Part shown: piece after piece, positions 26,901 through 64,000 of the stretch | How the letters are laid out: each line of letters begins with the position of its first letter | How positions within the stretch are numbered: position 1 is the stretch's first letter | Source of the DNA: Blasia pusilla | Taxonomy: Eukaryota | DNA length: 64,000 nucleotides | Direction: 5' to 3' | NCBI GenBank assembly: GCA_050084515.1 | Contig: CM114271.1 | Coordinates: forward strand, 46,748,001-46,812,000 | Translations under genes and position numbers: made by a program | Notes under the pieces: generated by a model | Database searches by the model: none | Told to the model about the DNA's origin: nothing | What the model saw: only the letters and a program-made list of their open reading frames with translations

Positions 26901-26960
26901 GGTACTCGCTCCACCCAAGGATGTCTGTATCCAAAATGGACAACGCTCCTCATCGGCTTT
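20956..26960 (-). mobile_element. Family A element, nested antisense copy (A-II), 5'-truncated: PR C-term, MTase, RT, RNaseH, integrase, PHD, then PPT-b-a-b
   Basis: 3' end CGACA at 20956 interrupts the RT of A-I. b2 20956-21080; a2 21081-21595; b1 21598-21724; PPT 21725-21737. RT (RMCGDYRPIN, LDLRAGYHQ, PFGLKNAP) ~23889-25016; RNaseH (LHTDWS, TDHQPL); integrase (HAHEELGHFG..CMVC, WSLDF, LIDHGTEF, GLAER) ~22208-23200; PHD ~21918-22053; MTase ~25355-26309. Confidence 0.9.
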
Positions 26961-28643
26961 CGCGATGCGTTCTTTGCTGGTCGATACGTTGAGGTATGCG
27001 ACTATTTGGGGTGGTGGTTATCGACCAACTATCCGGAGGTTTCATCAAGGAGATTATGTCTACTTACAGCAAACGGCATTGACGACGTTGGATGTGACTA
27101 CAGGGCGCACTATCCTGAGAGTGCCTGACTTTTTGCCATCCGGTGTTCTTTTGCTGGAGGGACGCGATGGTATGGTATGGAAGGACCATGTGCGTAATTG
27201 TGCGCCATGTGACCTTCCTAACATTAATGGTAGAGTAGATCCGAGCTTAGCAATAGTTCCTGCAGGCTTGCGTTGTATGTTGTGTGGTTCTACCCGTGGT
27301 GCGGCCACGATGCTAGTCTGTGATGGATGTTCGAGAGGTTGGCATATGGCATGTCTGCACCACCTCTCACTAGGGTTCCTCGGGGACGATGGATGTGTCC
27401 CAAATGTATATAGAGGAGATATTAGGTAGGTTTCGATTCCGACTTTTTATGTGATATGGATGACAGGAAGGCGACTAACGATGGGGCCACATGAGCACCT
27501 AGCCTTTCTGCTCTTAGCATCCTAGAGATGTATGTCGTGGTAGATAGAGATAGAGGGCTATCTGGAGTTAGAGAGACCTAACCACCATTTAGGGGGACGA
27601 TTGGAGATATTTTGGTACTTCTTGTCTCGTTGTTTGGATTCCATGAGTTAGCATGGGATCATGCGTGTTTGTGTGTGTGTTCGATGATAATGATGTATGT
27701 TGTGTAGTGATGTGTATGCCCACGATAACTATCACGTCTTTTAGGATAGATCGGTGAGATCTAGTAGAGCGCCTTCATGAGTTATGGAGGACATGCTCAG
27801 TAGATCGAAGATGATCTGCTGAGGCCGCGGGAAACTTGAGAGAGCAAGTTTTCCCTTCGTTTCGGCTCATTTTGGAATCATATTGAGAAAACTTACTATT
27901 TTAGGTAAGTAGTATTTTGAATATATGGTTGCCTTTCTATTTTTGGTAAGTAATCCTTGACCTCCTATATGAGGTCAAGAGCCAAGGAGGTGACTTGGGA
28001 GAATAGGTTACCATGGAGAGAGCTTGGGGGAGGGGATGGGTATACCTCAAGAGAGAGAGCTTGAGGGCTCATTCTCTCTTTGTTAAACCTCTTGGCATAA
28101 GGCGGCCGAGCTATGGTCCCTTGCCTTGTGAGTGTAATCCAAGCCTCTCATTAGGAGAGTGGGTTTGGTTTGACATGAGAGAGAGTGCACACCTTTGAGA
28201 GCTATGGTGTGAGATGGTGTAGAGAGAGATTGGATCTTACTTTATTGGAGATATTTTAGTACATCTTGTCTCGTTGTTTGGATGCCATGAGTTAGCATGG
28301 GATCGTGCGTGTTTGTGTGTATGTTTGGTGATAGATGTATGTTGTGTAGCGATGTGTATGCGCACGTCACCTTCTATTTCAGGTTGGATCAAGTAATGAT
28401 TTGATTATTCACTTGGTAGCCAATGAGTGTAAGTTATCAATTTGTAACATAATAACACTACTACATATGATATAAATCTGGAAGTCTAGAGAGCCGCAAT
28501 ATAGTCGCTATACACTCATACTCTACACACAAAAATCAAGTCAATTTTGAGTATTTTCGCCATGTTTTCTTACTCTTGTATAACACTAGAAAGAAAAACT
28601 CTTGAACTTTGTGCTAATTACTTCCAAGTTTGCATATACGGTG

Positions 28644-30170: not shown

Positions 30171-32454
30171 TGCCTACGTACGACAATTAGCCGTCTACAA
30201 TAGACAAAGGGGAAAAGATACCTTCGCCTTCCAGGATGCGTCGACCACCATTCTTTTCTTTTGTAGACGTGGTGCTGGTGGGAACCTAGTAGTTGATAAG
30301 CATAGCATCTCCATCACTAACATCGACAAGATAGCCAACATCTGTTTTCTTTTTATTATATTTTTCACTCTAGACCTGGATGAGAGGAAATCATTTCCAT
30401 GTAACTAGGTTCAATCTCAAAATTCATTGGGACATATACTAATTTTGAGATTTTTATAGTATAGTGAACCTAACCCTAACTTAAGTAAATTTTTAGTACA
30501 AAGGTATGTGTTAGGTTTATAGGTCTTGGAGATCATGCATGCTAGCATGACCATACGGATTATGTCGTAGAGTATAGTGTGCTAGTAGAGGACATACCTT
30601 ATGTAGGGCCGAAGTGTCTAGGTAGGGATGCGGTTTCATACATAGGGTTGGGGGTTACTCCGTTGAGGGTGACTTTTCCAGTAGGGCCCGCCCTTAGGTT
30701 GGAGGGTATAGTGTGGAGTGTACTCAAAAAACAATAGTTCTTTGAGTTGAGCCTGTTCCGTTGGGAGTTAGCCTTGGCTATGGTGGTTCCTAAAAGCTTC
30801 GACCTAGATTCTCCCATCGTGAAGTGGGTTTGGCTCCATTGTATGTGATTCTATATGTGTTTTACTACAGTAGGTCTTTCATGGATTTCACTCAAAGAAT
30901 TGGAGTAGATCGATGGTAGCTTGGATCGTAGATTAGAAGGATCTAGTTAGGGCTTATTGTATACTCAACTGTGGATATTCGTGGCTTGTGGCCTATTTTT
31001 GAGATGAGGATCTGGTACGTGATTGGTTGGGAAAGAAGCGTCTTGCTGAGAGCTTTCCAACGCACTTTAGATTGCCGGATTTCCTCAAGGGAGTTGGAAG
31101 TTATCAAAGATTGAAGATTCACGTTCATGTTCGATGGTTTTCTGATGTGGAGAGCTTGGAGTGTTGAAGCTCTGTAGGTTGAAGGTTCCTATTGCTACCT
31201 CTATTGTGATCTCATGCAAAGCTATCTGCTTGAGTGTGTGGAGCGGATTGCTGTTGTAGTGAAAGAGTGTTGCAGATTTCCATGTGCATGAATTTGGGCG
31301 GAAGCGCTGTCTGATTTGCGATTCTGGAGGTGTATGGACAACAAGTTTGTCTGATTTTTAGCTCGGAGTACAGAGCTCGGTTGTAGCTGATTTTTTGTGG
31401 AGAGGTAGCTATGGTGGCCAATTGAATTTTGGTTGAAATAGATTCAATTTTGGTTGAGTATTTGGGGCGTAATTGCTGGTCAAAATTTCTAGACTAGCAA
31501 GGTCTGGCTATGGTGGACAGCAGATCGGAGGGGCTGGTTGGTTGGTGACTCGTCCGTTGTTGGGGACGCCTATCCCGATGGGGGCGCCCTGGTTGGGCCT
31601 CTCTCCATAGCAAAGCATGGCAAACGGGGCGATAGGGGCATGTCTCGAGCATTTCTTGGCATTTCAAGGCTTCGAGGCAACTCGTGGTAGCTCGGGGCGA
31701 GTGGGCGTGAGAGGCGGAGTAAGGAGCAAGGAGCAAGCAAGCAAGCTTGCTTGCTTGGGCGCGAGGTAGTTTTTGCAGGATTTGTGAGTTGAGTGTTGCA
31801 TAACTGGTCACCCATCTTTGGGCTATTCTGCCTGGAAGACGCTTAATTGCTGAGTATTTAACTATGCCAGTGTACACATTGGTGTAGCTCCTTTGGTGTT
31901 ATTTGGAGATGCGTTAGGCGCTTTTATGCATCTCGGGTTTTCGGTTGATGGACCTCTAGCGCATAGTACGGTGTGGCCTCTCCATACATGTGACATTTTC
32001 AGGTGTTGCGAGTGCGACTAGCACGTCATCGACCATCGGCGGAGTAACTATTGCGTTAGAATTGTGTGGTTGGTTCTGTGGATTCAGGGGGCGCCACGTT
32101 TGGTGGATTGTGTTACATTGATTTCCGTTTTGTACTTCCATTTGCGATTTGAGGGTTGTCGTTGGACTTCTTGTATTTGGATCCCCTCCATCGTTGCTTC
32201 TTGCTTGCGCGCCCATTGTTAGAGCTTACGCTGATTTCCAGAGTAGTTTTACTCTTGTGTGCTACTGGTAGTGAGGCTGGAGTGATGACCAATAAGACTA
32301 CATTTGTTTCTTTCACGGTGAGAGTGGAGTGATGACTAGTAGATCGTGGGAGGCTTCTTGTGGTGATGACAGGTTAGGTTGCCTACACCCATAACTAGTA
32401 GAGCTAGAATAGTATAGCGACATTGACGTCACTTGGTTACTTAGTGGTGGTGAT

Positions 32455-35400
32455 TTGGCATCGGCGTTGGTCATCACGGAGTTGTCTGGTGATCTGGTTG
32501 GGGAGCGTGGTGTGGACAGTGGTGGTTTTACACGGAGTGGATTGAGGTATCGGCTACCTTTTCTACTTCTGACGGTTGATGAAGAGGAGGACGAGGGTGT
32601 TCCAAACACCAAGTCTTCTACATTGTTATCGAGTGTTGCAGCTCCATTGATTTGGGACATGGACGGGATGTATGGGACCATGAAGGGCCCACAAAAATAC
32701 TCGGGTGCAGTGGGCACCATTGAATTGGAGGACTTCATTCAGGAGTTTGACAGTTGGTGTGATATGCAGATGTTGTGGAACGCCACGTTGTTTACACCCT
32801 TCTTGGCTTGGAAGGGGTTGTTTCAGCGCTTGGAGGGACCACCCATGGATAATTACCATGAGTTTAGGAGGGACCATGCTGCTGAGATTGAGACGTGGAG
32901 ATAATATTGGTCTCTAGGCTATATGTCTATCACCCATGGTGGTATTGGTAGTAGTGCTCTTACTATGTCAGCCATCCCGACATTGAGTGTTGCGAGTATG
33001 AGCTGGAGTGGGTTTACCAGTGGAGGTACTAGTGGGGATACTAGTGGAGGTACTAGTGCCCCACCATCGTTCAGCCCGGTTGCAGAGTTCTTCAAGAGGT
33101 TGAAGAAGAATTATCAGGGAGTGAAGATAGAGAAGTTGAGGAGTCTTCAGGAATTCGAGCGAAACACTGGTGAGAGTCTTCGTGAGGCATACACTCGTAT
33201 GCGATGCTTGATTTCAATTATCTAGGGTGTGACTGAGGCTCAGACAATCTAGTTTTGGTATGGGATCTTGGACAAAGAGTTGCGTCGTAGGGTACGTGAT
33301 GCTACTCTTATGAGTGATGATTCACCCACATTGGCCCATAAGTTTGCTGTATCTGAGAAGATTGAGCTTAACATGGTGGAGGAGAGGGTGATGACATCCG
33401 CATTTAGTAGGGATACAACTACTACTTCTCATGTTCAGCTATCCACCTCACAATCTCGTAGTAGTGGTGGTGGTAGTAGTAGTAGTGGGAGTCGTGGGGG
33501 ATCCACACGACCTCAGTTAGGTCCTAGAGGGACGCTTGCACAGAGACCATTGCCTTCATTTGTTGCCCCGCAACAAGGACAGTCATGTTGGACATGTGGA
33601 GGTGATCATGTTAGGAGGTTTTGTCCCCAAGAGGATGGGAGACGGACTTTGGAGGATGGACCTCAGTCAGCCCCAACTCAGTGTGATCATTGTGGGAGAC
33701 CAGGTCATCCTCGAGAGTGTTGCTTTGATCTTCATCAAGAGTTGAGATCAGGCCGCGGCCGTGGTGGAGTAGCTCCGAGAGGCCGAGGTGGTAGAAGTGG
33801 TAGGGTTGGTAGAGGTGGACCAGCGGTTGGAGAGCCTACGGTTGCTGCCCCTACCACTATGACAGTGTCAGCTATGGCTGCCAGGATTGAGCAGTTGGAG
33901 CATAGGTTGGCTACTATGGCTGGTATCCAGCATAGAGCAGGTTCGAGAGCAGCTTCCACCTCTTATGGAGGGGATGATCTCTCTTATATGGCAAGTGCAG
34001 CACATGTTGAGGCATCGGCTGCAGTTACGAGAGGAGCCACTCGAGCATCAGAGCCACGTGGTGCTACTGTGGAGTTGGACCCATAGAGGGGTGAGGCTCG
34101 GAGGCAAGCTAGGCTCCCCCAGTCATTCTTGTTGTTTGAGGTGCTTAGGACTCCATCCATGGTTCCTAAACAACCTATTGAGCCTACAATGGGGACTGAG
34201 GCATCTATATCGCGTGTAGTAGACACGGATGCAACATCCAATGCAGTATTGCGGATGGCAACTTGAGTGTTGGGATCCCCATTGTTTTCATCCACTGAGT
34301 TGATGGCCTTAGGAGTTGACTTAGCTCCTGTATTTCAGCTAGCAGCCATGTTGTGTGAACGTGAGAGTGTTACTGCTACATGTGCTGAGGTGGATGAGGG
34401 TGTTGCGGTGGAGCAACCCTCTATGTCACGTGTAGCATTGAGTACCAGTGCTACTTGGCAGGCAACAACGGCGAAGATGGATGCATTACCAGCCCGGCCA
34501 GCCATTGATTGTGAGAGGCTTAGACCTGGTGTTTGTATGTTGGACAACCGGAGTGGGATCTTCCGATTGGTGAGTCCTACAAGACAAGTGTATAGACCAG
34601 ATAGAGTCTTGTTAGACTCTGGTGCCCAACCTTTCATGTTGGGAAAGGCAGCATGTATTGGTTTGGGTTTTTGGAGGTCAGAGCTTGAGCCTTGCCCATT
34701 CCAGATTCAGACATCACTTGGAGGAGCCAATGATAGGTCTCATTTCATGACATGGGAGAATTTGTCTGTACAGTTGAGACCAGATCATGCGACTGATAGC
34801 TCCAGGTTGGGAGTACCTGAAGTGGTCACATCATCTAAGTCGTATGATGTATTGGTTGGAGGAGCAGTATTGTACCCGATGGGTTTTCAGATGGACTACT
34901 GGATTGAGACAGCGTCTTATAGACCTGGTTGGCAGACCGGGGATGGACGTACGAGCCACGTTCCTGTGAGATTTATTTATGGGGCTTGACCAGGAGGGTC
35001 TTCCCCAACAGTGTTAGCATCTGTGGCTAGTTTTAGCGGAGTAGTCACTTGGCCAGGAGACTTTTTGGAAGGTAACATTTCTACTATGGATTCTCCTGTG
35101 CATGAGGAGGTAGAGGAGGTCCCTAGTTTTGCAGAAGTGGCATCCTCATCGTTGGATGTGCCACTTTGGAGTTCAGGAGGTGCACTACGGTAGGAGGCTG
35201 ATCGCCTAGTGCAGGAGGCTTGGTGTGAGGCTGTTATACCTCCGAGGAAGAGAAGGCTCCACGGCGGACTCCTACTTTTGGTCTAGTTGGATTATCCCCT
35301 TTGGATACTACATCCATTGTAAGGCAGTATCCGTCGGAGGGCATTTGTGTGTTAGATCTCTTTGGTGGGATTAGCATTGGTTTGGCTGCAATGTTGCAGG

Positions 35401-38400
35401 CTGGTATTCCTATGCAAAGATACGTGTATGTGGAGCGAGATGAGGCGGTCCTGAGAGTCTCATCCAGACATATTGGTCAATTGATGCGGAGATATCCTGA
35501 GTTGTTGCCGCCATCAGCTATTCGTGGGTACCGGCGTGCTTTGCCGTCACACATTGCATTTTTGGGAGCGGAGGACCTTTAGAGGGTTGATCTTGTGGAT
35601 TTGGTGATTTCTGGATGGCCATGTCAGGGTCATATACGTGCGTTGGTCGTGGTGAGGGATTACATGACCCTAGGTCTCAATTGTTTTGGGAGATGTTGCG
35701 TGTGTTAGGACATCTTCAGGTTCATTAGGCAGGTGCTCCAGCTTACATTGTGGAGAATGTTCCATTGTTGGGTGACACTCGGACCCGGATAATGGCGAGT
35801 GTTCACGAGGTGCGATCTTGGATTGGACCAGCGGTGTTGTTGGATGCAGCGCGAGTTGGCTCGTGTGTATATTGGCCACGCTTGTGGTGGACAAACTTGT
35901 TGCCTAGGGAGGTTCTACGTCGAGCATATGATGCAATGCAGTGGGATCCTTGCCTTACAATGGATAGTGTCTTGGGTAGTGGGCGACTTTCTCAGGTGGT
36001 GAGGGTTATTGATCGGTCACCTATGGCAGTGGTGAACCGTGTGGGGCAACCTAGGATGGCACTATCCACATTTGTGAGTTTTCCCTTGTCACATGCCTAC
36101 AAGGAAGGTGGTCCCGGGCTTGTATGGGATTCTCATGTGCGACAGTTGGTGGAGCCTAACGCTGATGAGAGAGAGCATGCGTTGGGATTTGCTATTGGTG
36201 TGACAGCGGTTGCTTCTATTTTGGAGGCTTCACGACATCATGTGTTGGGTCAAGCCATGGCCCTGAATTGTTTGACCTGGATTTTGAGTCTTGGTATGGC
36301 CGAGCAGCGTCGGCCATACGGCTTCAGACTATGTCTATGGATCTTCCACCCCTTGTGATGAGCTCGATGGCTACCGGGACGGTAGAGGCATCAACTAGGG
36401 GCGAGGAGAGTAGTATTTTGCATCCTTGGAGTAAATGGGATGAAATGGCTGGGCATGTGGAGTTGGTTGCTCATGTAGTGGAGGAGTTATTTGCTTAGAT
36501 GATGGTGTAGCTAAGGGTGTACCATCTTGTGAGGCGGTTGCATAGCAGCCAATGGCGTCGTCCTTTCCCTCTAGTGTGCCCGTGGAGGAGACTTTGGAGC
36601 CATTACTTGGGCCCAGGCTTACGGGAGGTGAGAAACTATGCTTGACACAGTTCCTACGTGCTTATAGGAGTTGTTTTGCCTTTAGCATGAAGGAGTTGGG
36701 TGCTTTGGTTGGACCCGATATACGGATTGATTTGGCTAGAGATACGCCAATCTTCCATCGTCCCTACCGATATAGTGATATGGAGAGGGATCTGATTGAG
36801 AGTAGGACGTTGGACCTTTTGGAGGCTGGATTAGTGGAGTTTTCGTATGGAGAGTATGCATCAACCATTGTCATGCCTGCTAAAAAGGATGTGCATGGCA
36901 ACTACATGGATAGGCGGATGTGTGGAGATTACTATCCTATCAATCAACAGACCAAGGCCGGAAGGTATGCCATGCCTACATCTGAGGAGATCTTTGATGT
37001 GGTGGGACACGCAAAGATTTTCAGTACTTTGGATCTTCGGGCAGGATACCATCAGTTGCGGATTCGAGAGAGTGACAAGGCCAAGACAACATTTTGGGGT
37101 GTCAACTCTCATGGCAAGGATTTTTTGTACTAGTGGAAATTCTTACCCTTTGGGTTGAAGAATACACCTGCCAAGTTTAAGAGAGTGATGGACAGGATCC
37201 TAGCACGGTTGGATTTTATTTAGTGTTACATTGATGATATCTTGGTGTTCAGTAACACGGTGGAGGAGCATCAGATACATTCGTAGATTGTGTTTGAGCA
37301 GTTGAGAGCTCATGGTCTACGTTTGCATCCAAGAAAGTGTAAGTTCTTCCATGAGGATGTTGAGTACTTGGGTCATGTGATCTATCCAAGTGGTTTGGGA
37401 GTTCAGCAAGCAAAGGTGGAGGCTATTGCACTTATTCCTCGTCCAATAGATGTGAGTTGAGTTCGGGCATTCATGGGATTCGCGAACTACTATCGGAGGT
37501 ATGTGAAGGGATTTAGTGCTATGGCAAAGCCTTTGAACCAATTGCTAAATTAAGTTCAAGAGTGGCACTGGGGAGATTATCAAGAGAGAGCTTTTGTGGA
37601 GCTCAAGGCCCAGTTGATGGTCGCGCCTATCTTGAGGAGACCTATCAGAGGGCGCCCATTTCAGTTGCACACTGATTGGAGTATGTTGGGACTTGGAGCG
37701 GTGTTGACACAACATGATGATGAGCATATGGAGTTTGTGGTGGCCTATGCAAGTCGTTCGAATAATGCAGCGGAGTCGCGCTATAGTTCATATGAGGGAG
37801 AGTGCTTGGCAGTAGTGTGGGTTGTGGCACACTTTAGGTGTTACTTGTTTGGCACACAGTTTACCCCTATTACTGATCACCAACCGTTCAAGTAGTTGAT
37901 GGAGTCTGACAAGCTTACAAGGAAGCTTGCACAGTGGGCTCTTATCTTACAGGAGTATGACTTCCAGGTGGTACATAGACCTGGAGTTGCCAACCTTGAT
38001 GTTGATGGGTTGAGTAGGAATCCATGTACTAGCCAAGAGGATGCAACTAGGGCTAGATGGCATGGCGAGGTTGATGAGGAGATGGTGCCAGGTTGGCATC
38101 CATCTGTCTTTTTATGTTGGTTAGGGGTAGACTCTAGTATGGAGGACCACATGACATCTTACTCTAGTTAGAGGGTAGATGGCCAGCCTTCAGATCCTAA
38201 GGTTGGAGATGGTGGTACGGATCAGCGTGATATTCATGATGATGCGTTGATGTTGGATTTCCTACAGACCAGTAGGATGCCAGGCATAGTGAGTGCCAAG
38301 GAATGAGATCGTGTTCTTCAACGTGCTAGGAGGTATCGATTGGAGGGAACACATATTCTCCGTGTGTGGGAGGATGGTAGAGTACGAGTGATGCCGCATT

Positions 38401-38575
38401 TGGCTCAGAGAGAGCGCATTGTGCGACATGCCCATAAGGAGTTGGGACATTTTGGTATAAAGCGTACGTATAGCTTACTCCTTGGTCAGATATTGGTGGC
38501 GTGGCATGCATACTCAGGTGAAGCAATTGGTGTCACGTTGTATGGTTTGTGACCGGGTGAGGGCATCATTTAATG
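32455..38575 (+). pseudogene. B-I polyprotein, 5' part: gag, protease, DNMT3-like MTase (~35340-36295), RT, RNaseH, integrase N-terminus
   Basis: CWTCGGDHVRRFC and CDHCGRPGHPRECC knuckles; VLLDSGAQP; GICVLDLFGGISIG, LVISGWPCQG (35601-35630), YIVENV, WPRLWWTNL, EREHALGF, HVLGQAM; RT YIDD (~37226); LHTDWS; HAHKELGHFG..CMVC. Confidence 0.88.
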
Positions 38576-41500
38576 TGTCGTGCGAATCCACATCGTCATA
38601 CAACATACATCGTTGACATACCATACTCACATACATACATAACATAGACGAGAGTATCCACAAACACAAGTGTACCACAATTGAAATGCGTGAAAGACCT
38701 ACTGTCATAAAACACGTTTACAATCACATACAATCGAGCCAAACCCACTCCACGATGGGAGAATCTAGGTCGAAGCTTATGGAAACACCATAGCCAAGAG
38801 CTCTACTCACTACCAAGGCTAACTCCCAAATAACAGGCTCAACTCAAAGAACTGATTGTTCTTTGAGTGCACTCCACCTTATATCCTCCAACCTAAGAGC
38901 GGGGCCCACTGGGAAAGTCACCCCAACCGAGTAACCCCAACCCTATGTATGGAACCGCATCTCTACCAATCCACTACGGTCCTACATAAGGAATGGCCTC
39001 TACTAGCACACCATACTCTACGACATAACCGTATGGTCATGACAATTTGTCGTGCCGAATCCACATCGTCATACAACATACATCATTGACATACCATACT
39101 CACATACATACATAACATAGACGAGTATCCACAAACACAAGTGTACCACAACTCGCCCCCTAATCTGGCGGTTAGGTCCTCTAACTCCCGGTAGCCCTAT
39201 ACATCTACTACATGCTATACACCTTCTTGGGTGCCCGAATCGAAGGCCGGTGCTAGGTTGCCCCATCGTTAGTCGCACATCAGTAATCCATATGATGCAA
39301 AGATCAAGTCATCTACCTCTCCTAAGTACATCGAGGACAAACCCACCTTCCAAAGAGAGGAACGACATCCAAACGTGAGTCAAACACATCATGTGCCAAC
39401 CCCTAGAACACCGATCACACACCAACATACGGTGCCGCGTTGCAGTGGACCCACACAACATGCACCTCAAGCTAGCACGTATCATGGCTAAGCTTGGGTC
39501 AACAGTACCATCCACATTTGGAAGATAACATGGCGCACAATTACGCACATGGTCCTTCCAAACAACTCCATCACGACCCTCTAACAAGAGAACTCCGAAG
39601 CCAACACCTCGCGACTTTTCGTAAAATAGTGCGGCCTGCCGTCACATCCAACATTGTCGGTGCAATCTGCTGCAAATAGACATAGTCCCCCACATGGAAC
39701 CTACGAATCGATGGTCGAGAACCTCCACCCCGAATGGTTGCATACCGCAACGTATCCTTGAGTTGAGCAATGGCAAGATTCTCAAAGGCTGTTGGCATAA
39801 CTCTCCGAAAGAGCTCCGCTACCGAGAACACACCCTCATCCACATCTCTCGGGTCATCAAGGTTCACCACCTCACTAGACTCCCGATGAATTCTTTGCTT
39901 TGGCAAGTCCGGATCTCACCGTATAATAGAAAATAAGGTGAGAAGGAAGCCAAGGATGCTTGGCGATTGAACCTATACCCCATGGCTAACCATGGCAACT
40001 GAATATCCCAGTCTCCAAGATGCCCCTTCTATAGGCTATACTTGCGCAATGCCCTCTTCACCGTCTAAACCACACGCTTAGCCAAACCATCCGCCTCTGG
40101 ATGATCTCGAGACGTGGTCCGATGATCAATCAACGCCTTGTCACACAAGACTTGAAACTCACCCGAAACTCGTACCTGGTCGGTCAAGACTTGGTGGTGC
40201 ACCAAAATGACTAAGCACTCTATCTAGAAACGCATACGCCGTTCCTCACTTGCCTTGTCCGGTAATGCCACCAACTCAATCCACTTGGAGAAGTGCTCCA
40301 CCATCACCAACACATATCGATGATGTAAATACCAACGGTAACGGTCCCGCAAAGTCCACACTCCAACGGTAACCCAACCCCATAATAGGCAAGGGGTGTA
40401 ATTGTGGTGTAGGGGCATTAAATGATGCCCTCACCCGGTCACAAACCATACAACGTGACACCAATCGCTGCACTGAGTATGCATGCCACGCCACCAATTC
40501 GCCAAGGAGTAAGCTATACGACGCTTTACCCCAAAATGTCCCAACTCCTCATGGGCATGTCGCACAATGCGATCTCTCTGGGCCAAATGTGGCACTACTC
40601 GTAGTCTACCATCCTCCCCACGCGGAGAATATGTGTTCCCTCCAATCGATACCTCTTAGCACATTGAAGAACACGGTCTCGCTCCTTGGCACTCACTATG
40701 CCTGGCACCCTCTTGGTCCGTAGGAACTCCAACACCAACGCATCATCATGAATATCACGCTGATCCGTACCACCATCTCCAACCTTAGGATCCAAGGTGG
40801 CCATCTACCCCTCGACTAGAGTAAGATATCATGTGGTCCTCCATACTAGAGTCCACCCCTAACCAACATAAAAGGCGGATGCATGCCAACCTGGCACCAT
40901 CTCCTCATCAACCTCGCCATGCCATCTAGCCCTGTTGTTGTATCCTCTTGGCTAGTACATGGGTTCCTACTCAACCCATCAAGCATCAAGGTTGGCAACT
41001 CAGGTCTATGTACCACCCGGAAGTCATACTCTGTAAGATAAGAGCCCTTTGTGCAAGCTTCCTTGTAAGCTTGTCCGACTCCATCACCACTTGAGCGGTT
41101 GGTGATCAGTAACAAGGGTAAGCGGGTGCCAAACAAGTAACACCTAAATTGTGCCACACCCACACTCTTGCCAAGCACTCTCCCTCATATGAACTATAGC
41201 GACTCCATTTGCATTATTCGAACGACTTGAGGCCACCACAAACTCCATGTGCTCATCATCATGTTGTGTCAACACCGCTCCAAGTCCCAACCTACTCCAA
41301 TCAGTGTGTAACTGAAATGGGCGCCCTCTGATAGGTCTCCTCAAGATAGGTGCCGCCACCAACTGGGCCTTAAGCTCCACAAAAGCTCTCTCCTGATCAT
41401 CTCCCCAGTGCCACTCTTGATCTGATTTCAGCAATTGGTTCAAAGGCTTTGCCATAGCACTAAATCCCTTCATATACCTCCGATAGTAGTTCGCCAATCC

Positions 41501-44500
41501 CATGAATGCCCGAACTCAACTCACATCTATCGGACGCGGAATAAGTGCAATAGCCTCCACCTTTGCTTGCTGAACTCCCAAACCACCTGGATAGATCACA
41601 TGACCCAAGTACTCAACATCCTCATGGAAGAACTTACACTTTCCTGGATGCAAACGTAGACCATGAGCTTTCAACCGCTCAAACACCATCTGCAAATGTA
41701 TCTGATGCTCCTCCACCGTGTTACTGAACACCAAGATATCATCAATGTAACACCGAACAAAATCCAACCCTGCTAGGATCCTGTCCATCACTCTTTGAAA
41801 CTCGGCCGGTGCATTCTTCAACCCAAAGGGTAAGAATTTCCTTTGGTACAAAAATCCTTGCCATGAGAGTTGACACCCCAAAATGTTGTCTTGGCCTTGT
41901 CACTCCCGAATCGGCAATTGATGGTATCCGCCGAAGATCAAAGTACTGAAAATCTTTGCCTGTCCCACCACATCAAAGATCTCTCAGGTGTAGGCATGGC
42001 ATACCTATCGGCCTTGGTTTGCCGATTGATAGGACGGTAATCTCCACACATCCGCCTATCAGTGTAGTTGCCATGCATATCCTTTTTAGCAGGTATGACA
42101 GTGGCTGATGCATACCCTCCATGCGACAACTCCACTAATCCAGCCTCCAAAAGGTCCAACGTCCTACTCTGAATCAAGTCCCTCTCCATATCACTATATC
42201 GATAGGGACGACGGAAGATTGGCGTATCACTAGCCAAATCAATCCGTATACCGTGTCCAACCATAGAACCCAACTCCTTCATGCTAAAGGCAAAACAACT
42301 CCTATAAGCACGTAGGAACTGTGTCAAGCGTCGTTTCTCACCTCCCGTAAGCTTGGGCCCAAGTAATGGCTCCCAAGTCTCCTCCACTGGCATACTAGAG
42401 GGAGAGGACGATGCCATTGGTTGCTCATAACCCCTCACAAGATGATACACCCTTAGCTACACCATCATCCGAGCAAATAACTCCTCCACCAAAGATGAGC
42501 AACCAACTCCACATGCCCAGCCATTACATCCCATCTACTCCAAGGATGCAAAATACTACTCTCCTCGCCTTCAACCGATGCCTCTACCGCCCCGGTAGCC
42601 ATCGAGCTCATTACAAGGGTGGAAGACCCACAGACATAGTCCGAAGTCGACGCGTTGCTCGGCCATACCAAGACTCAAAATCCAAGTCAAACAATTCAGG
42701 TCCATGGCGACCCAACACATGACGTCGTGAAGCCTCGAAATAGAAGCAACCACTTTGTCACACCAAGAGCAAATCCCATCGCACGCTCTCTCTCATCAGC
42801 GTTAGGCTCCACCAACTATCGCACATGAGAATCCCATACAAGCCCGGACCACCTTCCTCGAGGCAGGCATGTGACGAGGAAAACTCACAAATGTGGGTAG
42901 TGCCATCCTAGGTGGCCCCACATGGTTCACCATTGCCATGGGTGACCGATCAATAACCCTCACCACTTGGGAAAGTCGCCCAAAGATCCAAGATACTATC
43001 CTTTGTAAAGGCGAGGATCATTTGCCAGACCGCATCATATGCTCGACGTAGAACCTCCCTAGGCAACAAGTTTCTCCACCACAAGCGTGGGCGATGTGCA
43101 CGCTGAGCCAACTCTGTTGCATCCAACAACACCGCTGGTCCAATCCAAGAGCGCACCTCATGAACACTCGCCATCATCCAGTCCGAGTGTCACCCAACAA
43201 TGGAACATTCTCCAAAATGTAAGCTAGAGCACGTGCTCGATGAACTGAAGATGTCGTAACACCCGTAACATCTCCCAAAACAATCGAGACCTAGGGTCAT
43301 GTAATCCCTCACCCGACCAAAGACGTGTATGACCACGACATGGCCATCCAAAGCAATCACCAAATCCACAGGACCAATTCTCTCAAGGTCCTGCGCGCCT
43401 CAACAATGCAATGTGTGATGGTAAAGCACGCTGGTACCCACGAATAGCGATGGCGGCAACAACTCAGATACCTCCGCATCAATCGACCAATATGTCGGGA
43501 TGAGACTCTGGGCCGTCTCATCTCGCTCCACATACACGTATCTCCCGACAGAATACCGGCCTACAACATCTGACCAAACCAAAGTGCTAATCCCACCAAA
43601 GAGATCTAACACACAAATGCCCTCCGGCGGATACGCCATACAATGGGTGTAGTATCCAAAGGGGATAACCTAATCTGGGCCAGTAGTAGGAGTCCGCCGT
43701 GGGGCCTCCTCTTCCTCGTGAGGTATAATGACCTCACACCAAGCCTCTGCACTAGGCGTCGCCTCTGCCGTAGTGCATCGCTGAACTCCAAAGTGGCACA
43801 TCCAACGATGAGGATGCCCTTTGCTGCAAAAATAGGGACCTCCTCTTCCTCCTCATGCGCAGGAGAATCCATAGCGTAAAACATTACCCTCCAAAAAGTC
43901 TCTGGCCAAGTGACTACTCCACTAAAACCAGCCATAGATGCTAACACGTTGTTGGGGAAGACCCTCCTGGTCGAGCCCCGAAATAAATCTCACAGAACTT
44001 GGCTCATACGTCCATCCCGGACGCCAACCTGGTCTATAAGACTGTCTCGACCCAAGTAATCCATCCGAAAACCCATCGGGTACAATATCGCTCCTCCAAC
44101 TAGTACATCATACGACTCGGATCGATGTGACTACCGCAGATACTCCCAACCGGAGCTATCGATCGCATGATCTGGTCTCAAACTGTCATGTAAAACTTCT
44201 CCCGTGTCATGAATTGAGACCTATCATTGGCTCCTCCAAGTGATGTTTGAATCGGAATGGGCAAGGCTCAAGCTCGACCTCCGAATACCCAAACCAATAC
44301 ATGCCGCCTTTCCCAACATCAAGGTTGGGCACCGAGTCTAACAAGACTCTATCGGTCTATACACGTGTCTGTAGGACTCACCAATCGGAAGATCCCACTC
44401 CGGTTGTCCAACATACATACACCAGGTGTAAGCCTCTCACGATCAATGGTGGCCGGTGGTAATGCATCCATCTTCGCCGCCGCCGCCAAGTAGCACCGGT

Positions 44501-47500
44501 ACTCAATGCTACTCTCGACATAGAGGGTCGCTCCACCGCAACACCCTCATCCACCTCAACACGTGTAGCAAGAATAACACCCCACGTTCACACAACGTGG
44601 TCGCTAATCAAATACAGGAGCTAAGTCAACTCCTAAAGCCATCACTCCGTGGCGAAAACAATGGGGATCCAACACCGAAGTTGCCATCCGCAATCTTTGC
44701 ATTGATCTTTGCATCCGTGTCTACTACACGCGATGTAGATGCCTCAATCCCCACTATCGGCTCAATAGGCTGCGAGGAACCATGGATGGAGTCCTAAGCA
44801 CCTCAGACAACAAGAATGACTAGGGAAGCCTAGCCCGCCTGACCTCACCCCTCTGTGGGTCCAACTCCACAATAGCACCACGTGGCTCGACGCTCGAGTG
44901 GCTCCTCTCAGAATCGCACGGTGATGCCTCAACTTTTGTCCGCACTCGCCATATAAGAGAGATCATCCCCTCCATAAGAGGTGGAAGCCCCTGCTCCCGA
45001 ACCTGATCTATCTTTGGATACCGACCATAGTAGCCAACTTCTCGCTCCAATCGCTCAATCGGCAGACCATAGTCGACTTCGTAGTGGTAGGGGTAGCCAC
45101 CGAGGATCTCCAACCACCTGGTCCACCTCTACCACCCCTACCACCTCTACCACCTCGGCCTCTCGGAGCTACTCCACCACGGCCACGGCCCATGATCTCA
45201 ACTCGGATGAAGATCAAAGCAACGCTCTCGAGGATGACCTAGTCTCCCGCAATGATCACACCTGAGTTGGGGCCGATCGAGGCCCATCCTCCAAAGTCCG
45301 TCTCCCATCCTCTTGGGGACAAAACTTCCTAACATGATCACCTCCACATGTCCAACATGATCGTCCTTGCTGCGGGGCAGCAAATGAAGGCAATGGTCTC
45401 TGCACAAATGTCCCTCTAGGACTTGATCGAGGTCGCGTGTACCCCACGACTCCCACTACTACTACCACCACCACTACTACGAGATGTGAGGTGGGCGGTG
45501 AACACGAAGTAATAGTTGTATCCCCCCATGAATGCGGATGTCACCACTCTCTCCTTCACCATGTTAAGCTCAATCTTCTCGAGATAGAGCAAACACATGG
45601 GTCAATGTGGGTGAATCATCACTCATAAGAGTAGCATCACGTACCCCCTACGGCGCAAATCTCTGTCCAAGATCCCATACAAAATGGATGCTGATCCTCA
45701 ATCACACCATGGGTAATCGAAATCAAGCGCCGATACGCGTGTGTATGCCTTACGAAGACTCTCACCAGTCTTTCGCTCAAAGTCCTGAAGATTCCTCAAC
45801 TTCTCCGTCTTCACTCCTTGATAGTTCTTCTTCAACCTCTTGAAGAACTCTACAACGGGCTAAACGATGGTGGGGCACTAGTACCTCCACTAGTACCCCC
45901 ACTAGTACCTCCACCGGTACCCCCACTCCGACTGCACTCATTACCACTCGCGTTGGGTTTTGGTGGCATAGTAGGAGCACTACTACCAATACCACCATGG
46001 GTGATAGACACATAGCCTGGAGACCAATATTGTCTCCATGCTTCAATCTCAACAACATGGTCCTTCCTAAACTCATGGTAATCATCCATGGGTGGTCCTT
46101 CCAAATCTTTGAAACAACCCCTTCCAAGCCAAGAAGGGTGTAAACAACGTATGCGTTCAACATCGCATATCACACCACGTATCAAACTCCTGCATGAAGT
46201 CCTCCAACTCAATGGTACCCATTGCACCGAGTATCGTGGGCCCTTCATGGCCCCATATCCACCGTCCATGTCCCAAATCAATGGAGCGCAACACTCGATA
46301 ATAACGTAGAAGACTGGTGTTTGGAACACCCTTGTCCTCCTCTTCATCAACCGTCGGAAGTGGAAAAGGTAGCCGATACCTAAATCCACTCCGTGTGAAA
46401 CCACCATTATCCACCACGGTCCCCAACCAGACCACCCGACTGACTCCCGTGATGACCAACGCCGATGCCGCACCACCACCAAATTACCCAAGTGACGCCG
46501 ATGTCGCTCTACTATTGTAGCTCTACTAGCTATGGGTGTAGGCAATCTAACCTCTCATCACTACAAGAAGCCTCCCACGGTCTCATGGTCATCACTCCAC
46601 CTCACTACCGGTAGCAGGGGAGTAACACTACTCTGGAAATCAGCGTCAACCCTAACAATGGGCGCGCAAGCAAGAAGCACGATGGAGGGGATCCAAACAC
46701 AGGAAGTCCAACGACAACCCTCCAACCGCAAATGGAAATCAAGGTAACACAATCCACCAAACGTGGTGCCCCCTGAATCCACAAAACCCACCACACAATT
46801 CTAACGCAATAGCTACTCCGCCGCGGGTCGATGACGTACTAGTCGAACTCGCAGCACCTGAAAATATCACCTGCATGGAGAGGCTACACCGTACTATGCG
46901 CTAGAGGTACATCAACCAAAAACCTGAGATGCATAAAGCGCCTAACACATCTCCGAATAGCACCAAATGAGCTACAACAGTCTGTACACTAGCATAGTTA
47001 AGAACTCAGCAGTTAAGCGTCCTCCAGGCAGAATAGCCCAAAGATGGGTGACCATTTATGCAAAACTCAAATCCCAAATCCTGCAAAAATTGCCTCACGC
47101 CCAAGCAAGCAAGCTTGATTGCTTGCTCCTTGCTCCTTACTCCGCCTCTCACGCCCACTCGCCCCGAGCTACCACGAGTTGCCTCGAAGCCTCAAAACGC
47201 CGAGACATGCCCCTATCGCCCCGTTCGCCATGCTTCGCTATGGAGAGAGGTCCAACCAGGGCGCCCCCAACGGGATAGGCGTCTCCAACAATGAACGAGT
47301 CACCAACCAACCAGCCCCTCCGATCCGCGAAATTTCGATCAGAAATTCTTCACAAATACGTGACCGAAATCAAATCTGTTTCGATCAAAATTCAATTGAC
47401 CACCATAGCTATCTCCCCACAAAAACTCAGCTACAACCGAGCTCCATACTCCGAGCTAAAAATCAGACAAACTTGCTGTCCATACAACTCTATAACCGCA

Positions 47501-48288
47501 AATCCGACAGCGCTTCCGCCAAGTTTCATGAACGCAGAAATCCGCAACGCTCCACGCACTCGAGCAGATAGCTTCACATGAGATCACAATACAAGTAGCA
47601 ATAGGAACCTCTCACCCGATCTGGATGAACTTCAACAGAGCTTCCGCACTCCAAGCTCTCCACATCAGAAAATTGTCGAACATGAACCAGAATCTTCAAT
47701 GCTTGATAACTTCCAACTCCCTTGACGAAATCTGGCGATCTATAGCGCGTTGGAAAGCTCTCAGCAAGGCGCTTCTTTCCCAACCAACCACGCACCTGAT
47801 TCACACCTCCAACATAGGCAACAAGCCCCGAACATCCACGGCTGAGTACACAATCAACCCTAACCAGATCCTACTGATCTACAATCGAAGCTACCATCGA
47901 TCTACTCCAGTTCTTTGAGTGAAATGCGTGAAAGACCTCTTTGTCATAAAACACGTTTACAATCACATACAATCGAGCCAAACCCACTCCACGATGGGGA
48001 GAATCTAGGTCGAAGCTTATGGAAACACCATAGCCAAGAGCTCTACTCACTACCAAGGCTAACTCCCAACGCATAACAGGCTCAACTCAAAGAACGATCG
48101 TTTCTTTGAGTGCACTCCACCTTATATCCTCCAACCTAAGAGCGGGCCCCTTTGGGAAAGTAACCCCAACCGAGTAACCCCAACCCTATGTATGGAACCG
48201 CATCTCTACCAATCCACTATGGTCCTACATAAGGAATGGCCTCTACTAGCACACCATACTCTACGACATAATCCGTATGGTCATGACA
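38576..48288 (-). mobile_element. Family B element, complete nested antisense copy (B-II, ~9.7 kb) inserted in the B-I integrase
   Basis: Starts TGTCATGA (48288), ends CACGACA (38576), TSD AATG (38572-38575 / 48289-48292); removing it restores RASFNAPTP. a1 47920-48288; PPT ~39153-39163; b1 39048-39152; a2 38682-39044; b2 38576-38681. Gag ~46500-45000, PR ~44340, MTase ~43621-42665, RT with YIDD 41516-42450, RNaseH, integrase, PHD ~39329-39464. Confidence 0.92.
47909..47920 (-). promoter_or_regulatory. Putative self-priming primer-binding site, family B (equivalent at 30890-30901 in B-I)
   Basis: Minus-strand ACTCAAAGAACT directly after a1 is complementary to GTTCTTTGAGT (48085-48095), about 31 nt downstream of TATAAG (48126). 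Confidence 0.7.
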
Positions 48289-49388
48289 AATGCCCCTACA
48301 CCAAAGTTACACCCCTTGCCTATTATAGGGTTGGGTTACTGTTGGAGTGTGGACTTTGCGGGACCTTTACCGTTGATTGTACGACATCATCGATATATGT
48401 TGGTGATGGTGGAGCACTTCTCCAAGTGGATTGAGTTGGTGGTATTACCTGACAAGGCAAGTGAGGGAACGGCATATGCGTTTCTTGATAGAGTGCTTAG
48501 TCATTTTGGTGCACGAGCTGAGGTGCTGACTGATGAGGGTACAGAGTTTCAAGGTGAGTTTTAGATCTTGTGTGACAAGGCGTTGATTGATCATCGGACC
48601 ACGTCTCGAGATCATCTAGAGGCGAATGGTTTGGCTGAGCGTGTGCTTCAGACGGTGAAGAGGGCATTGCGCAAGTATGGCCTATAGAAGGGGCATCTTG
48701 GAGACTAGGATATTCTGTTGCCATGGTTAGCCATGGGATATAGGTTCAGTCGCCAAGCATCCTTGGCTTCCTTCTCACCTTATTTTCTGTTATACGGCCG
48801 AGATCCAGACTTGCCATTAGCAATTTGTCGGGAGTCTAGTGAGGTGGTGGACCTTGATGACCCAGAGATGTGGATGAGAGTGTGTTCTCAACGGGCAGAG
48901 CTCTTTCGGAGAGTTATGCCAACATCCTTTGAGAATCTTGCCATTGCTCAACTCAAGGATACGTTGCGGTATGCAACTATTCGGGTGGAGGTTATCGACC
49001 ATCGATTCGTAGGTTCCATGTGGGGAACTATGTCTATTTGCAGCAGATTGCACCAAAAACGTTGGATGTGACGGCAGGCCGCACTATTTTACGAGTGCGA
49101 GAGGTGTTAGCTTATGGAGTTCTCATGTTGGAGGGTCGTGACGGAGTTTTTTGGAAGGACCATGTGCGTAATTGTGCGCCATGTCATCTTCCAAATGTGG
49201 ATGGTACTGTTGATCCAAGCTTAGCCATGATACGTGCTAGCTTGAGGTGCATGTTGTGTGGGTCTGCTGGTAACGCAGCCCGTATGTTGGTGTGTGATCG
49301 GTGTTCTAGGGGTTGGCACATGATATGTTTGACTCCACGTATGGATGTTGTTCCTACTGGAAGGTGGGTTTGTCCTCGATGTACTTAG
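48289..49388 (+). pseudogene. B-I integrase core and C-terminal PHD finger (continuation after B-II)
   Basis: WSVDFAGPL, VLTDEGTEF, GLAERV; CMLCGSAGNAARMLVCDRCSRGWHMICLTPRMDVVPTGRWVCPRC (C4-H-C3) at 49248-49382. Confidence 0.9.
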
Positions 49389-50439
49389 GAGGGGTAGATG
49401 ACTTGATCTTTGCATGATATGGATTACAGATGTGCGACTAACGATGGGGCAACCTCACACCCAACCTTTTGACTCGTGCACCCACGAAGGTGTATAGCAT
49501 GTAGTAGATGTATAGGGCTACCTGGGAGTTAGAGGGACCTAACCACCAGTTAAGGGGGTGAGTTATGATACACTTGTGTTTGTGTATGCTCTCGTCTATG
49601 TTATGTATGTATGTGAATATGGTATGTCAACGATGTATGTTGTATGACGATGTGGATTCTCACGACAGCTCTCATGACCATACGGATTATGTCGTAGAGT
49701 ATAGTGTGCTAGTAGAGGCCATACCTTATATAGGGCCATAGTGTCTAGGTAGGGATGCGGTTTCATACATAGGGTTGGGGGTTACTCCGTTGAGGGTGAT
49801 TTTTCCAGTAGGGACCGCCCTTAGGTTGGAGGGTATAGTGTGGAGTGTACTCAAAGAACAGTTAGTTCTTTGAGTTGAGCCTGTTGCGTTGGGAGTTAGC
49901 CTTGGTAGTGAGTAGAGCTCTTGGCTATGCTGGTTCTCGCAAGCTTCGACCTGGATTCTCTCATCTTGGAGTGGGTTTGGCTCGATTGTATGTGATTCTA
50001 TAGGTGTTTTATGACAGTAGGTCTTTCACGGATTTCAGTTGTGGTACACTTGTGTTTGTGTATGCTCTCGTCTATGTTATGTATATATGTGAGTATGGTA
50101 TGTCAACGATGTATGTTGTATGACGATGTGGATTCGCACGAAAATGCCCAATCTATGGGCCCAACAAAGGGGCAATGTATTGTGGACCATTGCAGACCAC
50201 AATATATCATGCACGGTGTTGTGAAGTTTGTTTCATAAGAGCACAAAGAGGGGATGGGTCTCATAGGAGAGCCATTGATTGCCATCAACATGCCTTGCAT
50301 CATGAATTGTATAGATTGGATGGTACGTAGAGGTGAGATCTTGTGTGCTTAGTCTGACAACAAACACAAGTTATGGTTGGAACACCTCACCTTATTAGAC
50401 TATGAGTATCCAAAGTATAGCTTCACTAACTATCTATAT

Positions 50440-62980: not shown

Positions 62981-62984
62981 TATT

Positions 62985-63553
62985 CGACGCCGCTCTCCTC
63001 CTGTCAACTTAGGGCCCATATCTAGCTCCCAAGTCTCCATCGTGACTACGTAAGATCCAATCTCTCTCTACACCATCCCACACCATAGCTCTCAAAGTTG
63101 TGCACTCTCTCTCTCTCTCATGTCAAACCAAACCCACTCTCCTAATGAGAGGTTTGGGTTACACTCACAAGGCAAGGAACCATAGCTCCGCCGCCTCATG
63201 ACAAGAGGTTCAACGAAGAGAGAATGAGCTCTCAAGCTCTCTCTCCTTGAGATATACCCCTCCCCTCTCCCAAACTCTCTCCATGGTAACCTATTCTCCT
63301 TGGTTCTTGACCTTATGTAGGAGGTCAAGGTCCACTTGCCAAAAATAGAAAGTTGATCATATACTCAAAATGGTACTTGCCTAAAATAGTAAGTTCCTCA
63401 ATATGGCTCCAAATGAGCCGAAACGAAGGGAAAACCTGCTCTCTCAGGTTTCCCAGGGCCTCAGCATGTCATCCTCAATCTATTGAGTGTGTCCTCCACT
63501 ACTCACAAAGATGCTCTACTAGATCTCACCGATCTATCCTAAAAGATGTGAGA
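62985..63553 (-). mobile_element. Family A deletion derivative: repeat a (63051-63553) fused directly to ~65 bp of the RT start
   Basis: 63051-63553 matches repeat a of family A; 62985-63050 matches the gtagtcacgatggagacttggg... segment at ~20674-20735. Confidence 0.8.
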
Positions 63554-64000
63554 GTGATCAACGTATCCCCACGTGGTCGACCACCACTACTCCCTGCAAA
63601 CTGCACCGGTAGATGGCTCACCCTTCCATCACCTGATCGCCAGTATGGCCGATAAGAAACCGTCTCCTCCCAAAAATCCAGAATGAAACCTAGAGGGTAC
63701 AACATCGTACTCCCTACCAACCCATCATACGACTCTGCCGATGTCATAATCGCCCGAGTGCGCACCATTGCACTATCCGTCTCATGCTCTAGCTGAAGTC
63801 TAATCACTAACTTTTACAGAGTCATGTATTGCGTGGATGATACGCCCTCAATAGAGGTCTGTATCTGAAAGGGACAGCGCTCAATGTCGCCTTTCCGTAA
63901 ATCCAACGCCAAACACGCCGCCTTCCCTAACATCAAGGGTTGGGCTCCTGAATCAAGTAGAACGGACTACGGATGGTACACTGTACCTCTAGGACTAACC
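63554..64000 (-). mobile_element. Protease-region fragment of a further related element (runs off the window)
   Basis: LLDSGAQPLMLGKAA..ERCPFQIQTS..AESYDGLVG..LYPLGFILDFWEE..SYRP.W..GDGR is homologous to, but diverged from, families A and B. Confidence 0.8.

Follow-up and report, generated by a model that had tools for sequence, protein, structure and literature searches.

Split-repeat Gypsy elements of Blasia pusilla appear to carry their integrase sites inside the reverse-transcribed repeat, pointing to integration from a joined LTR-LTR form

How does a retroelement with a DDE integrase come to lie in the genome with a different repeat at each end? Textbook long terminal repeat (LTR) retrotransposons integrate through the tips of their linear cDNA, and circles are by-products. 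The question is raised by a stretch of 64,000 nucleotides of Blasia pusilla (assembly GCA_050084515.1, contig CM114271.1, positions 46,748,001 to 46,812,000 of the forward strand), hereafter the window, in which two families of long elements, A and B, have the layout a1-internal-b1-NN-a2-b2, a and b being two direct repeats and NN a short spacer. The anatomy of these elements and of their relatives in metagenome contigs gives good support to the notion that the integrase sites lie within the LTR made by reverse transcriptase (RT), and that integration depends on a joined LTR-LTR form.

The layout had been noticed in a preliminary description of the same DNA, and comparison of the window with itself confirmed that it is real: three complete copies and one partial copy carry it, in two families that are ~70% alike. 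All four visible 3' ends read polypurine tract (PPT)-b1-NN-a2-b2, and every visible 5' end reads flank-a1-internal. The coordinates and motifs given previously for the junctions of B-I, B-II and A-I were correct on re-reading. The parts of B-I, including its primer-binding site (PBS) and target-site duplication (TSD), are as follows.

30543-38575, then 48289-50143, plus strand: B-I, split by B-II
30543..30890, plus strand: a1 of B-I, starting TAGCATG, a mutated TGTCATG; TSD ATGC at 30539-30542
30891..30899, plus strand: PBS CTCAAAGAA, adjoining a1 and complementary to TTCTTTGAG within a
49552..49561, plus strand: PPT AAGGGGGTGA, adjoining b1
49562..49667, plus strand: b1, with terminal CACGACA at 49661-49667
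49668..49669, plus strand: 2-nt spacer GC, within the palindromic b-end/a-start junction
49670..50037, plus strand: a2, starting TCTCATG, containing the self-primer site GTTCTTTGAG (49865-49874) and, upstream of it, a TATA-like box (49834-49837)
50038..50143, plus strand: b2, without spacer to a2, ending CACGAAA and followed by TSD ATGC at 50144-50147

The other copies with this layout are B-II, A-I and the partial copy A-II.

38576..48288, minus strand: B-II, complete, nested in B-I in inverse orientation, same layout as B-I
48288..47920, 47919..47910, 39152..39048 and 39047..39045, minus strand: a1, PBS, b1 and spacer of B-II
39044..38682 and 38681..38576, minus strand: a2 and b2, the 3' end of B-II
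39054..39038, minus strand: b1/a2 junction of B-II, CACGACA-AAT-TGTCATG
38572..38575 (left) and 48289-48292 (right): TSD AATG of B-II, from the empty-site comparison with 40380-40460
14343 to 28369, plus strand: A-I, broken at 20955/20956 by A-II
14343..14856, plus strand: a1 of A-I; TSD CCTT at 14339-14342, PBS AAAGAGAGAATGAG at 14857-14870
27591..28369, plus strand: 3' block of A-I, with PPT 27591-27600, b1 27601-27727, spacer AC 27728-27729, a2 27730-28245 and b2 28246-28369, then TSD CCTT 28370-28373
27721-27736, plus strand: junction of A-I, CACGATA-AC-TATCACG
20956..26958, minus strand: A-II, 5'-truncated, nested in A-I in inverse orientation
21725..21596, 21593..21080 and 21081..20955, minus strand: b1, a2 and b2, the 3' end of A-II

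Relatives were sought by scanning metagenome contigs with an alignment of 14 integrase-PHD proteins as the query. At least 600 stretches matched and at least 505 were confirmed; the best 80 were kept and then annotated with the a and b sequences.

30 of the best 80 loci: form 1, b1-a2-b2 after the integrase
25 of the best 80 loci: form 2, b followed by at least 400 bp of unrelated sequence
7 of the best 80 loci: no b found (L007, L024, L033, L037, L061, L070, L078)
13 of the best 80 loci: contig ends before b
2 of the best 80 loci: contig ends within 400 bp past b
3 of the best 80 loci: partial

Once the same insertions from different samples had been merged, these best 80 loci came down to 23 distinct sites of form 1 and 22 of form 2, and the b end was intact at 19 of the latter. 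The related loci fell into three lineages, with integrases 47-86% identical to the query.

Where do these elements really end? Copies start with TGTCA and end with TGACA. In each of the 14 complete copies (3 from the window and 11 loci), a script located a start resembling TGTCATG and an end resembling CACGACA, and then compared the four bases on either flank. The 4-bp TSD was perfect in 11 of them, for a chance expectation of 1 in 256 per copy; three of four positions matched in L068 and L080, and none in L052. Window TSDs, which the preliminary description did not give, were ATGC for B-I, AATG for B-II and CCTT for A-I. The empty site of B-II was visible in its own uninterrupted homologous stretch, which reads CATCATTTAATGCCCC, as compared with AATG on either side of B-II in the occupied site. 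The termini TGTCA...TGACA fit the TGTNR pattern reported for gypsy LTRs and Ginger transposons (PMC2836005) and, with the 4-bp TSD, the rule of TG..CA ends plus a 4-6 bp TSD (PMC12440569).

A possibility was that these are ordinary LTR elements, with a as the LTR and a later local duplication of b, or else that the layout is an assembly error. LTR-finding logic would indeed pair a1 with a2. However, the TSDs flank the a-start and the b-end and not a1 and a2, and this position already refutes such an explanation. It must also contend with copy-specific variants common to b1 and b2, and with the presence of the layout in two ~70%-alike window families plus 23 distinct loci from independent assemblies. 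We give it next to no credence.

We then asked which repeat reverse transcription would produce. In the window copies, as in the form-1 loci that were aligned, b1 is immediately preceded by a G-run PPT (AGGGGG..., GGGGGGG). On the other side, no tRNA-type PBS was evident after a1, and that candidate was replaced by a self-primer: the stretch of 10-14 nt that follows a1 is complementary to a site within a, 129-178 nt before the end of a. PBS and self-primer site differ by lineage while their pairing is kept, the pairs being CTCAAAGAAC/GTTCTTTGAG in family B and group 1, AAAGAGAGAATGAG/CTCATTCTCTCTTT in family A and TCTAGAAAAACT/AGTTTTTCTAAA in group 2. In the three lineages, a TATA-like box precedes the self-primer site by ~30 nt. 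In A-I, the complement extends over 14 nt and none of 2000 shuffles of a reached that match; the corresponding counts out of 2000 were 0 for L005, 5 for B-II, 16 for L050, 17 for B-I and 49 for L023. This points to self-priming of the Tf1 type, with a predicted transcript start within a. Since the PPT lies at b1 and the PBS follows a1, the LTR made by RT would be b-NN-a and the cDNA would be ba-internal-ba. We also observed a second copy of the PBS (CTCAAAGAAC) within a, just upstream of the presumed transcript start (49850-49874), and at the equivalent position in B-II and the loci of group 1. Together with the self-primer site, this second copy forms a hairpin, CTCAAAGAAC-AGTTA-GTTCTTTGAG.

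The a-start (TGTCA/TATCA) and the b-end ((C/T)GACA) are kept in all three lineages, whereas the b-start and the a-end differ among them. This indicates that the palindrome ...TGACA-NN-TGTCA... is the integrase site and that the RT-defined tips are not. For most form-1 copies, the b1/a2 spacer within the palindrome measures 2 nt; that of B-II measures 3 nt, and a few old copies are less legible. X3 contigs contained the b-end/a-start joint with GC between the two sides, at a depth of 474. When B-II was compared with the contigs of four runs, the joints listed were ones already known, b-end/GC/a-start, a/b and a/CTCAAAGAAC, the last of which was also found in organism B. We considered that the spacer letters might be a copy of the TSD (AAT and AATG in B-II, GC and ATGC in B-I), but this appeared to be a coincidence, as it was not found in A-I, L005 or L026.

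The second joint of the integrated copy, a2/b2, places the U5 end beside the U3 start; within one lineage, copies differ there by 1-4 nt. The joint is precise (CAAT/ATACATG) in four group-2 copies. Extra letters corresponding to the first letters of the PBS were found in L064 (TC) and L071 (T); in L004 and L019, the letters CGAG/CGAA come from the PPT and the final CA of a is missing; the joint is 2 nt short in L041 and L038, and L067/L068 have a small deletion. As for the repeats, we detected no fixed a1-versus-a2 difference within a on comparing 9 with 11 sequences in group 1 and 7 with 14 in group 2, the consistent differences being confined to flanking columns included in the alignment. 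Copy-specific variants were common to both b repeats, namely GTGTATGC in B-I and GTGGATA in B-II. Because the a/b joint is variable while a1 and a2 are homogenised, the joint must be made and not inherited. Its variation would be as expected of joined cDNA ends with variable primer removal. The earlier proposals that the recognised ends sit at the a-start and the b-end, that the RT-made LTR is b-a with a cDNA ba-internal-ba, that a2/b2 looks like joined cDNA ends and that the repeats are regenerated at each cycle were all supported, the one on the LTR with stronger evidence than was originally offered.

Which enzymes might carry out such a cycle? In order, the elements encode gag, protease, C5 DNA methyltransferase (DNMT), RT, RNase H, DDE integrase and PHD finger. 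In family B, Pfam matched RVT_1, RT_RNaseH(_2), Integrase_H2C2, rve and a C-terminal PHD (40 stop-to-stop open reading frames, ORFs, scanned in the window), and five related loci (26 ORFs scanned) also had an aspartyl protease. The rve domain was matched both in the window and in the related loci, which upheld the DDE integrase put forward in the preliminary description. In contrast, no tyrosine recombinase (Phage_integrase) was detected in these 66 ORFs, nor in the precomputed Pfam annotation of 47 homologues.

34906..36304, plus strand: C5 DNA methyltransferase region of B-I (tblastn with L026:6403-7803), between protease and RT, frame broken
37554..37892, plus strand: RNase H of B-I (Pfam RT_RNaseH_2, E 2e-31)
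38307..38549, plus strand: integrase H2C2 zinc-binding domain of B-I (Pfam), immediately before the B-II insertion
48250..48561, plus strand: integrase catalytic core of B-I (Pfam rve, E 5e-10)
49248..49385, plus strand: C-terminal PHD finger of the B-I integrase ORF (Pfam, E 4e-11), of which homologues exist
L026:6403-7803, L050:6748-7308, L057:5355-6221: DNMT region in related loci

The methyltransferase between protease and RT was recognised by Pfam DNA_methylase in three of the five loci (E 1.5e-6, 7.9e-5 and 1.9e-3), and in a protein atlas 29 of 30 matches of the region belonged to the C5 DNA methyltransferase family. Each of the four window copies contains a homologous region (B-I 34906-36304; B-II 42658-44016, minus strand; A-I 18977-20352; A-II 25347-26726, minus strand). 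In L026, the motifs FGG, ENV and MGFP are legible, and the cysteine of PCQ reads W, this copy being decayed. Full-length relatives combine zf-CCHC, DNA_methylase, RT, RNase H, integrase and PHD within one protein, and the integrase-PHD ORF has annotated relatives in Marchantia polymorpha, Calypogeia fissa and Sphagnum fallax. Incidentally, we noticed that many Marchantia "hypothetical protein" gene models with PF00145 are fragments of these elements.

The layout equals the split direct repeats of PAT and Ngaro as these are described in PMC8969392 and PMC4157794, and the same comparison is drawn in the text of a 2018 paper (PMC5890265). We considered a DIRS-like cycle, in which the RNA would span a1 to b2, both joints would be inherited through RNA, and the repeats would serve template switching that restores the ends. 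Several observations go against it. No tyrosine recombinase was found in the 66 ORFs; the elements have TG..CA ends and 4-bp TSDs, whereas DIRS elements are devoid of TSDs according to PMC8969392; the boundaries of a and b match the PBS and the PPT exactly; and the a/b joint varies between close copies, with no fixed a1/a2 differences. Such a cycle was already disfavoured on these grounds, and we regard it as very unlikely.

Collectively, these data led us to favour the following account, which, taken as a whole, has in our view a slightly better than even chance of being right. Transcription would start within a, ~130-180 nt before its end, and the 5' end of the RNA would prime the minus strand on itself at the site adjoining a1, as in Tf1. 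The plus strand would be primed by the G-run PPT at the first base of b. RT would then build the LTR b-NN-a and the linear cDNA ba-internal-ba, in which U5 ends at the a end and U3 starts at b. The integrase would ignore the cDNA tips and recognise the palindrome ...TGACA-NN-TGTCA... within each LTR. The U5 end (a end) would be joined to the U3 start (b start), and opening at the b/a palindrome of the 5' LTR only would make the integrated copy a circular permutation, a-internal-b-NN-a-b, with a 4-bp TSD around it. Joining might occur first in a free circle, or else the integrase might cut and hold the 5' palindrome while the free tips join. It is from the layout that we infer either kind of joining, as well as the sole use of the 5' junction.

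Why the 5' junction only? A joined molecule contains two identical b/a junctions, so both permutations are expected, and yet only one was seen. The other, a-b-a-internal-b, was found at none of the 14 distinct 5' ends with enough upstream sequence (11 loci and 3 window copies, L005 and L021 being one site). Relaxed BLAST of the 800 bp upstream of a1 revealed no b or a-b either, with a single 15-nt chance match. A search for this permutation had been called for in the preliminary description, which proposed a symmetric 2-LTR circle as the integrase substrate. That proposal accounted well for the internal attachment ends and for the variable a/b joint, but its symmetry is at odds with the 14 distinct 5' ends. 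In the same way, the cycle deduced there does produce a-internal-b-a-b but did not foresee the a-internal-b form of the 19 distinct loci with an intact b end. A possible explanation for the asymmetry, which we offer as a suggestion, is kinetic. After the second strand transfer, the 5' LTR would become double-stranded first (a few hundred bases), while the 3' LTR would await ~9 kb of plus strand; on the standard RT scheme, the integrase would thus meet the 5' palindrome first. An integrase holding that palindrome while the tips join would account for the asymmetry.

The symmetric version deserves separate mention. A free 2-LTR circle could be formed by host end-joining, the integrase then opening whichever b/a palindrome it meets. 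This would yield a-internal-b-a-b and account for the variable a/b joint, and the reports on the integrases of prototype foamy virus (PFV) and of HIV-1 document cleavage of 2-LTR junctions. However, the two junctions have the same sequence over more than 100 bp to either side, and a-b-a-internal-b should then be about equally common, whereas a-b-a occurred at none of 14 distinct 5' ends as against b-a-b at 23 distinct metagenome loci and in 4 window copies. We consider this course of events unlikely.

Another possibility was that RT itself makes the a/b joint, the plus strand at the a end of the 3' LTR jumping onto the 3' tip of the minus strand (b start). No host ligation would be needed, and the integrase would then cut the next b/a palindrome. 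Being asymmetric by nature, such a jump fits the absence of a-b-a at the 14 distinct 5' ends, and the joints are precise or nearly so, with at most ~4 nt of variation apart from the one deletion joint (L067/L068). It is drawn from its fit to the layout, and the extra letters derived from PBS and PPT suit either enzyme. End-to-end jumps are not known to be a regular step for Ty3/gypsy RTs. All in all, we find this explanation quite improbable.

Several points weigh against the favoured account, in which the integrase uses joined ends and opens the 5' palindrome. The circle, the cDNA ends and the transcript ends are all deduced from integrated copies, and the 14 distinct 5' ends mentioned above lack the second permutation. 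Every copy examined is decayed, with stops and frameshifts. The PBS complement was not above shuffles in 6 of 12 copies (L052, L002, L074, L026, L080 and L068), and we assume that in these six older copies the signal has been lost by decay. Metagenome contigs can be chimeric, L020 being a case in point (see below). Lastly, the a-internal-b form has no settled explanation in a joined-end model, and no such copy exists in the window, where all four visible 3' ends read b-a-b.

As to this second form, perfect TSDs were present in five of the six form-2 copies readable at both ends (L002, L023, L029, L057 and L074). In a tree of the integrase region (41 rows, leaving out duplicates and loci with less than 900 nt of integrase match), forms 1 and 2 were fully interspersed, with 16 changes as compared with a shuffled mean of 13.7. 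This indicated that form 2 arises sporadically and does not breed true, and ruled out that it is a heritable sub-lineage. Eight sites were assembled two or three times (18 contigs) and displayed the same form every time, which does not support random assembly collapse. Between the integrase and the end of b, L020 matches L019 at 99.4% identity, and yet its 3' flank is that of L023, which in its interior is only 92.8% like L019; L020 represents either a metagenome contig that is chimeric or a true recombinant that crossed over within b. Form 2 may have arisen by later b1/b2 deletion, by an integrase that either paired the 5' LTR's a-start with the 3' LTR's b-end or opened a 1-LTR circle, or in part by assembly collapse.

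The window contains further traces of these families. A lone family-A repeat, without any b upstream in the window self-comparison, looks like an internally deleted or rearranged copy.

63050..63559, minus strand: A-III, a single repeat a of family A that abuts an internal fragment (62953-63048) homologous to A-I 20673-20767

In both A and B, a copy is nested in inverse orientation within a copy of its own family. Within B-I, the H2C2 and rve domains are separated by B-II, and A-II interrupts the DNMT/RT region of A-I. Such nesting might stem from targeting to chromatin by the PHD finger, or just from a neighbourhood rich in transposons. A-I and A-II have in common one ~6.8 kb deletion, which took the 5' part of A-II and 2.4 kb of A-I. 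Short dispersed repeats of ~100-150 bp, 73-86% alike and unrelated to families A and B, flank the element cluster (787-1504 and 50431-50584).

What would this mean for retroelement integration? With TSD-bearing ends inside the repeat defined by PPT and PBS, and with a U5/U3 joint fossilised in every full copy, the anatomy read from these sequences is hard to reconcile with integration by the tips. A wider claim is that a lineage with a DDE integrase, running from charophytes to bryophytes, integrates obligatorily from joined LTR-LTR ends through a palindrome built into its LTR, much as IS3 minicircles do, and that split direct repeats reflect the geometry of RT and joining and not tyrosine recombinases. 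We put this forward tentatively, as somewhat less than an even bet. If it holds, the lineage would be a living model for the rise of DIRS-type elements from LTR elements. Obligatory joining would provide a eukaryotic retroelement DDE integrase with abutted ends as its normal substrate, and would give the DIRS-like split direct repeats a concrete, testable origin. The asymmetry (no a-b-a-internal-b seen) and the a-internal-b form are constraints on any mechanism. On the practical side, annotation tools based on LTR pairs would probably mis-call or drop the lineage, since they would take a1 and a2 as the LTRs with no TSD beside a2. Marchantia being a tractable model plant, direct testing is possible.

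To which known group do these elements belong? The Pol order protease-RT-RNase H-integrase with H2C2 and rve is that of Ty3/gypsy (Metaviridae), and so are the TG...CA (TGTNR) termini and the 4-bp TSD, within the 4-6 bp range. However, ordinary gypsy elements have the same LTR at both ends, whereas these begin with a on the left and finish with b on the right; membership of ordinary gypsy fails on that account. The split direct repeats A1-internal-B1-A2-B2 are those of the DIRS elements PAT and Ngaro, but an rve integrase takes the place of the tyrosine recombinase and 4-bp TSDs are present, DIRS being TSD-less according to the text of PMC8969392. Membership of DIRS fails on both counts. A C5 methyltransferase within a gypsy Pol and DIRS-like repeats on a gypsy body are the traits of Gypsy-DNMT3, the repeats being given in the legend of Fig. 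4c of PMC5890265. On these three common traits, we filed the window elements as bryophyte members of the streptophyte Gypsy-DNMT3 kind. A 2026 preprint mentions "streptophytes (Gypsy-DNMT3)", and no Klebsormidium sequence was among the homologues returned by our protein searches.

The closest known system is KnitGypsy-Dnmt3 of Klebsormidium nitens, a Gypsy-DNMT3 element described with Gypsy domains, a C5 DNA methyltransferase within Pol and DIRS-like repeats (de Mendoza et al. 2018, PMC5890265). The layout, presented as unseen in the preliminary description, is therefore not new: it was published once before, for Klebsormidium, without a mechanism in the passages cited here. Our elements have a liverwort-type host with moss and liverwort relatives and may further differ by their C-terminal PHD finger; TSDs, PBS and PPT positions and end motifs are likewise not part of the passages cited from de Mendoza et al. 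The literature searched on split-repeat gypsy elements, on Marchantia PHD-integrase retrotransposons and on Gypsy-DNMT3 yielded no further report of such elements. Troyka, as described in PMC12440569, proved unrelated to the a-internal-b-a-b layout.

Likeness to the DIRS elements PAT, Ngaro and TOC extends beyond A1-internal-B1-A2-B2, as many DIRS elements have a methyltransferase domain. Yet the methyltransferase here is of the C5 type and not Dam-like, and a DDE integrase, TG..CA ends and 4-bp TSDs stand where PMC8969392, in its text, gives DIRS a tyrosine recombinase and no TSD. With Tf1/sushi and plant Tcn1 elements, our elements would have in common a PBS complementary to the predicted 5' end of their own transcript and not to a tRNA, and self-priming was predicted for the Tcn1 clade of mosses and club-mosses (Neumann et al. 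2019, PMC6317226). Going by description, those elements have ordinary LTRs and chromodomains, in contrast to the permuted repeats, DNMT and PHD finger found here.

For the use of joined ends, precedents exist in bacteria and in retroviruses. Transposases of the IS3, IS30, IS21 and IS256 families are DDE enzymes related to retroviral integrases that take abutted ends a few bp apart as substrate, IS3-family enzymes integrating from abutted minicircle ends (PMC3299598), and they have TG/CA ends and short TSDs (PMC2836005). They differ in being bacterial, DNA-only copy-out/paste-in systems with no reverse transcription. PFV (PMC1180852) and HIV-1 (PMC4372172, PMC1905944) integrases are reported to cut both strands at CA...TG in the palindromic LTR-LTR junction of 2-LTR circles, which yields 3'-processed, integration-ready ends, and HIV-1 2-LTR circles can feed integration (PMC4372172). 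In retroviruses, however, the palindrome is the U5/U3 joint that results from circularisation and the pathway is optional, whereas in the elements described here the palindrome lies inside every LTR, the integrated copy retains an uncut U5/U3 joint, and this route would be obligatory.

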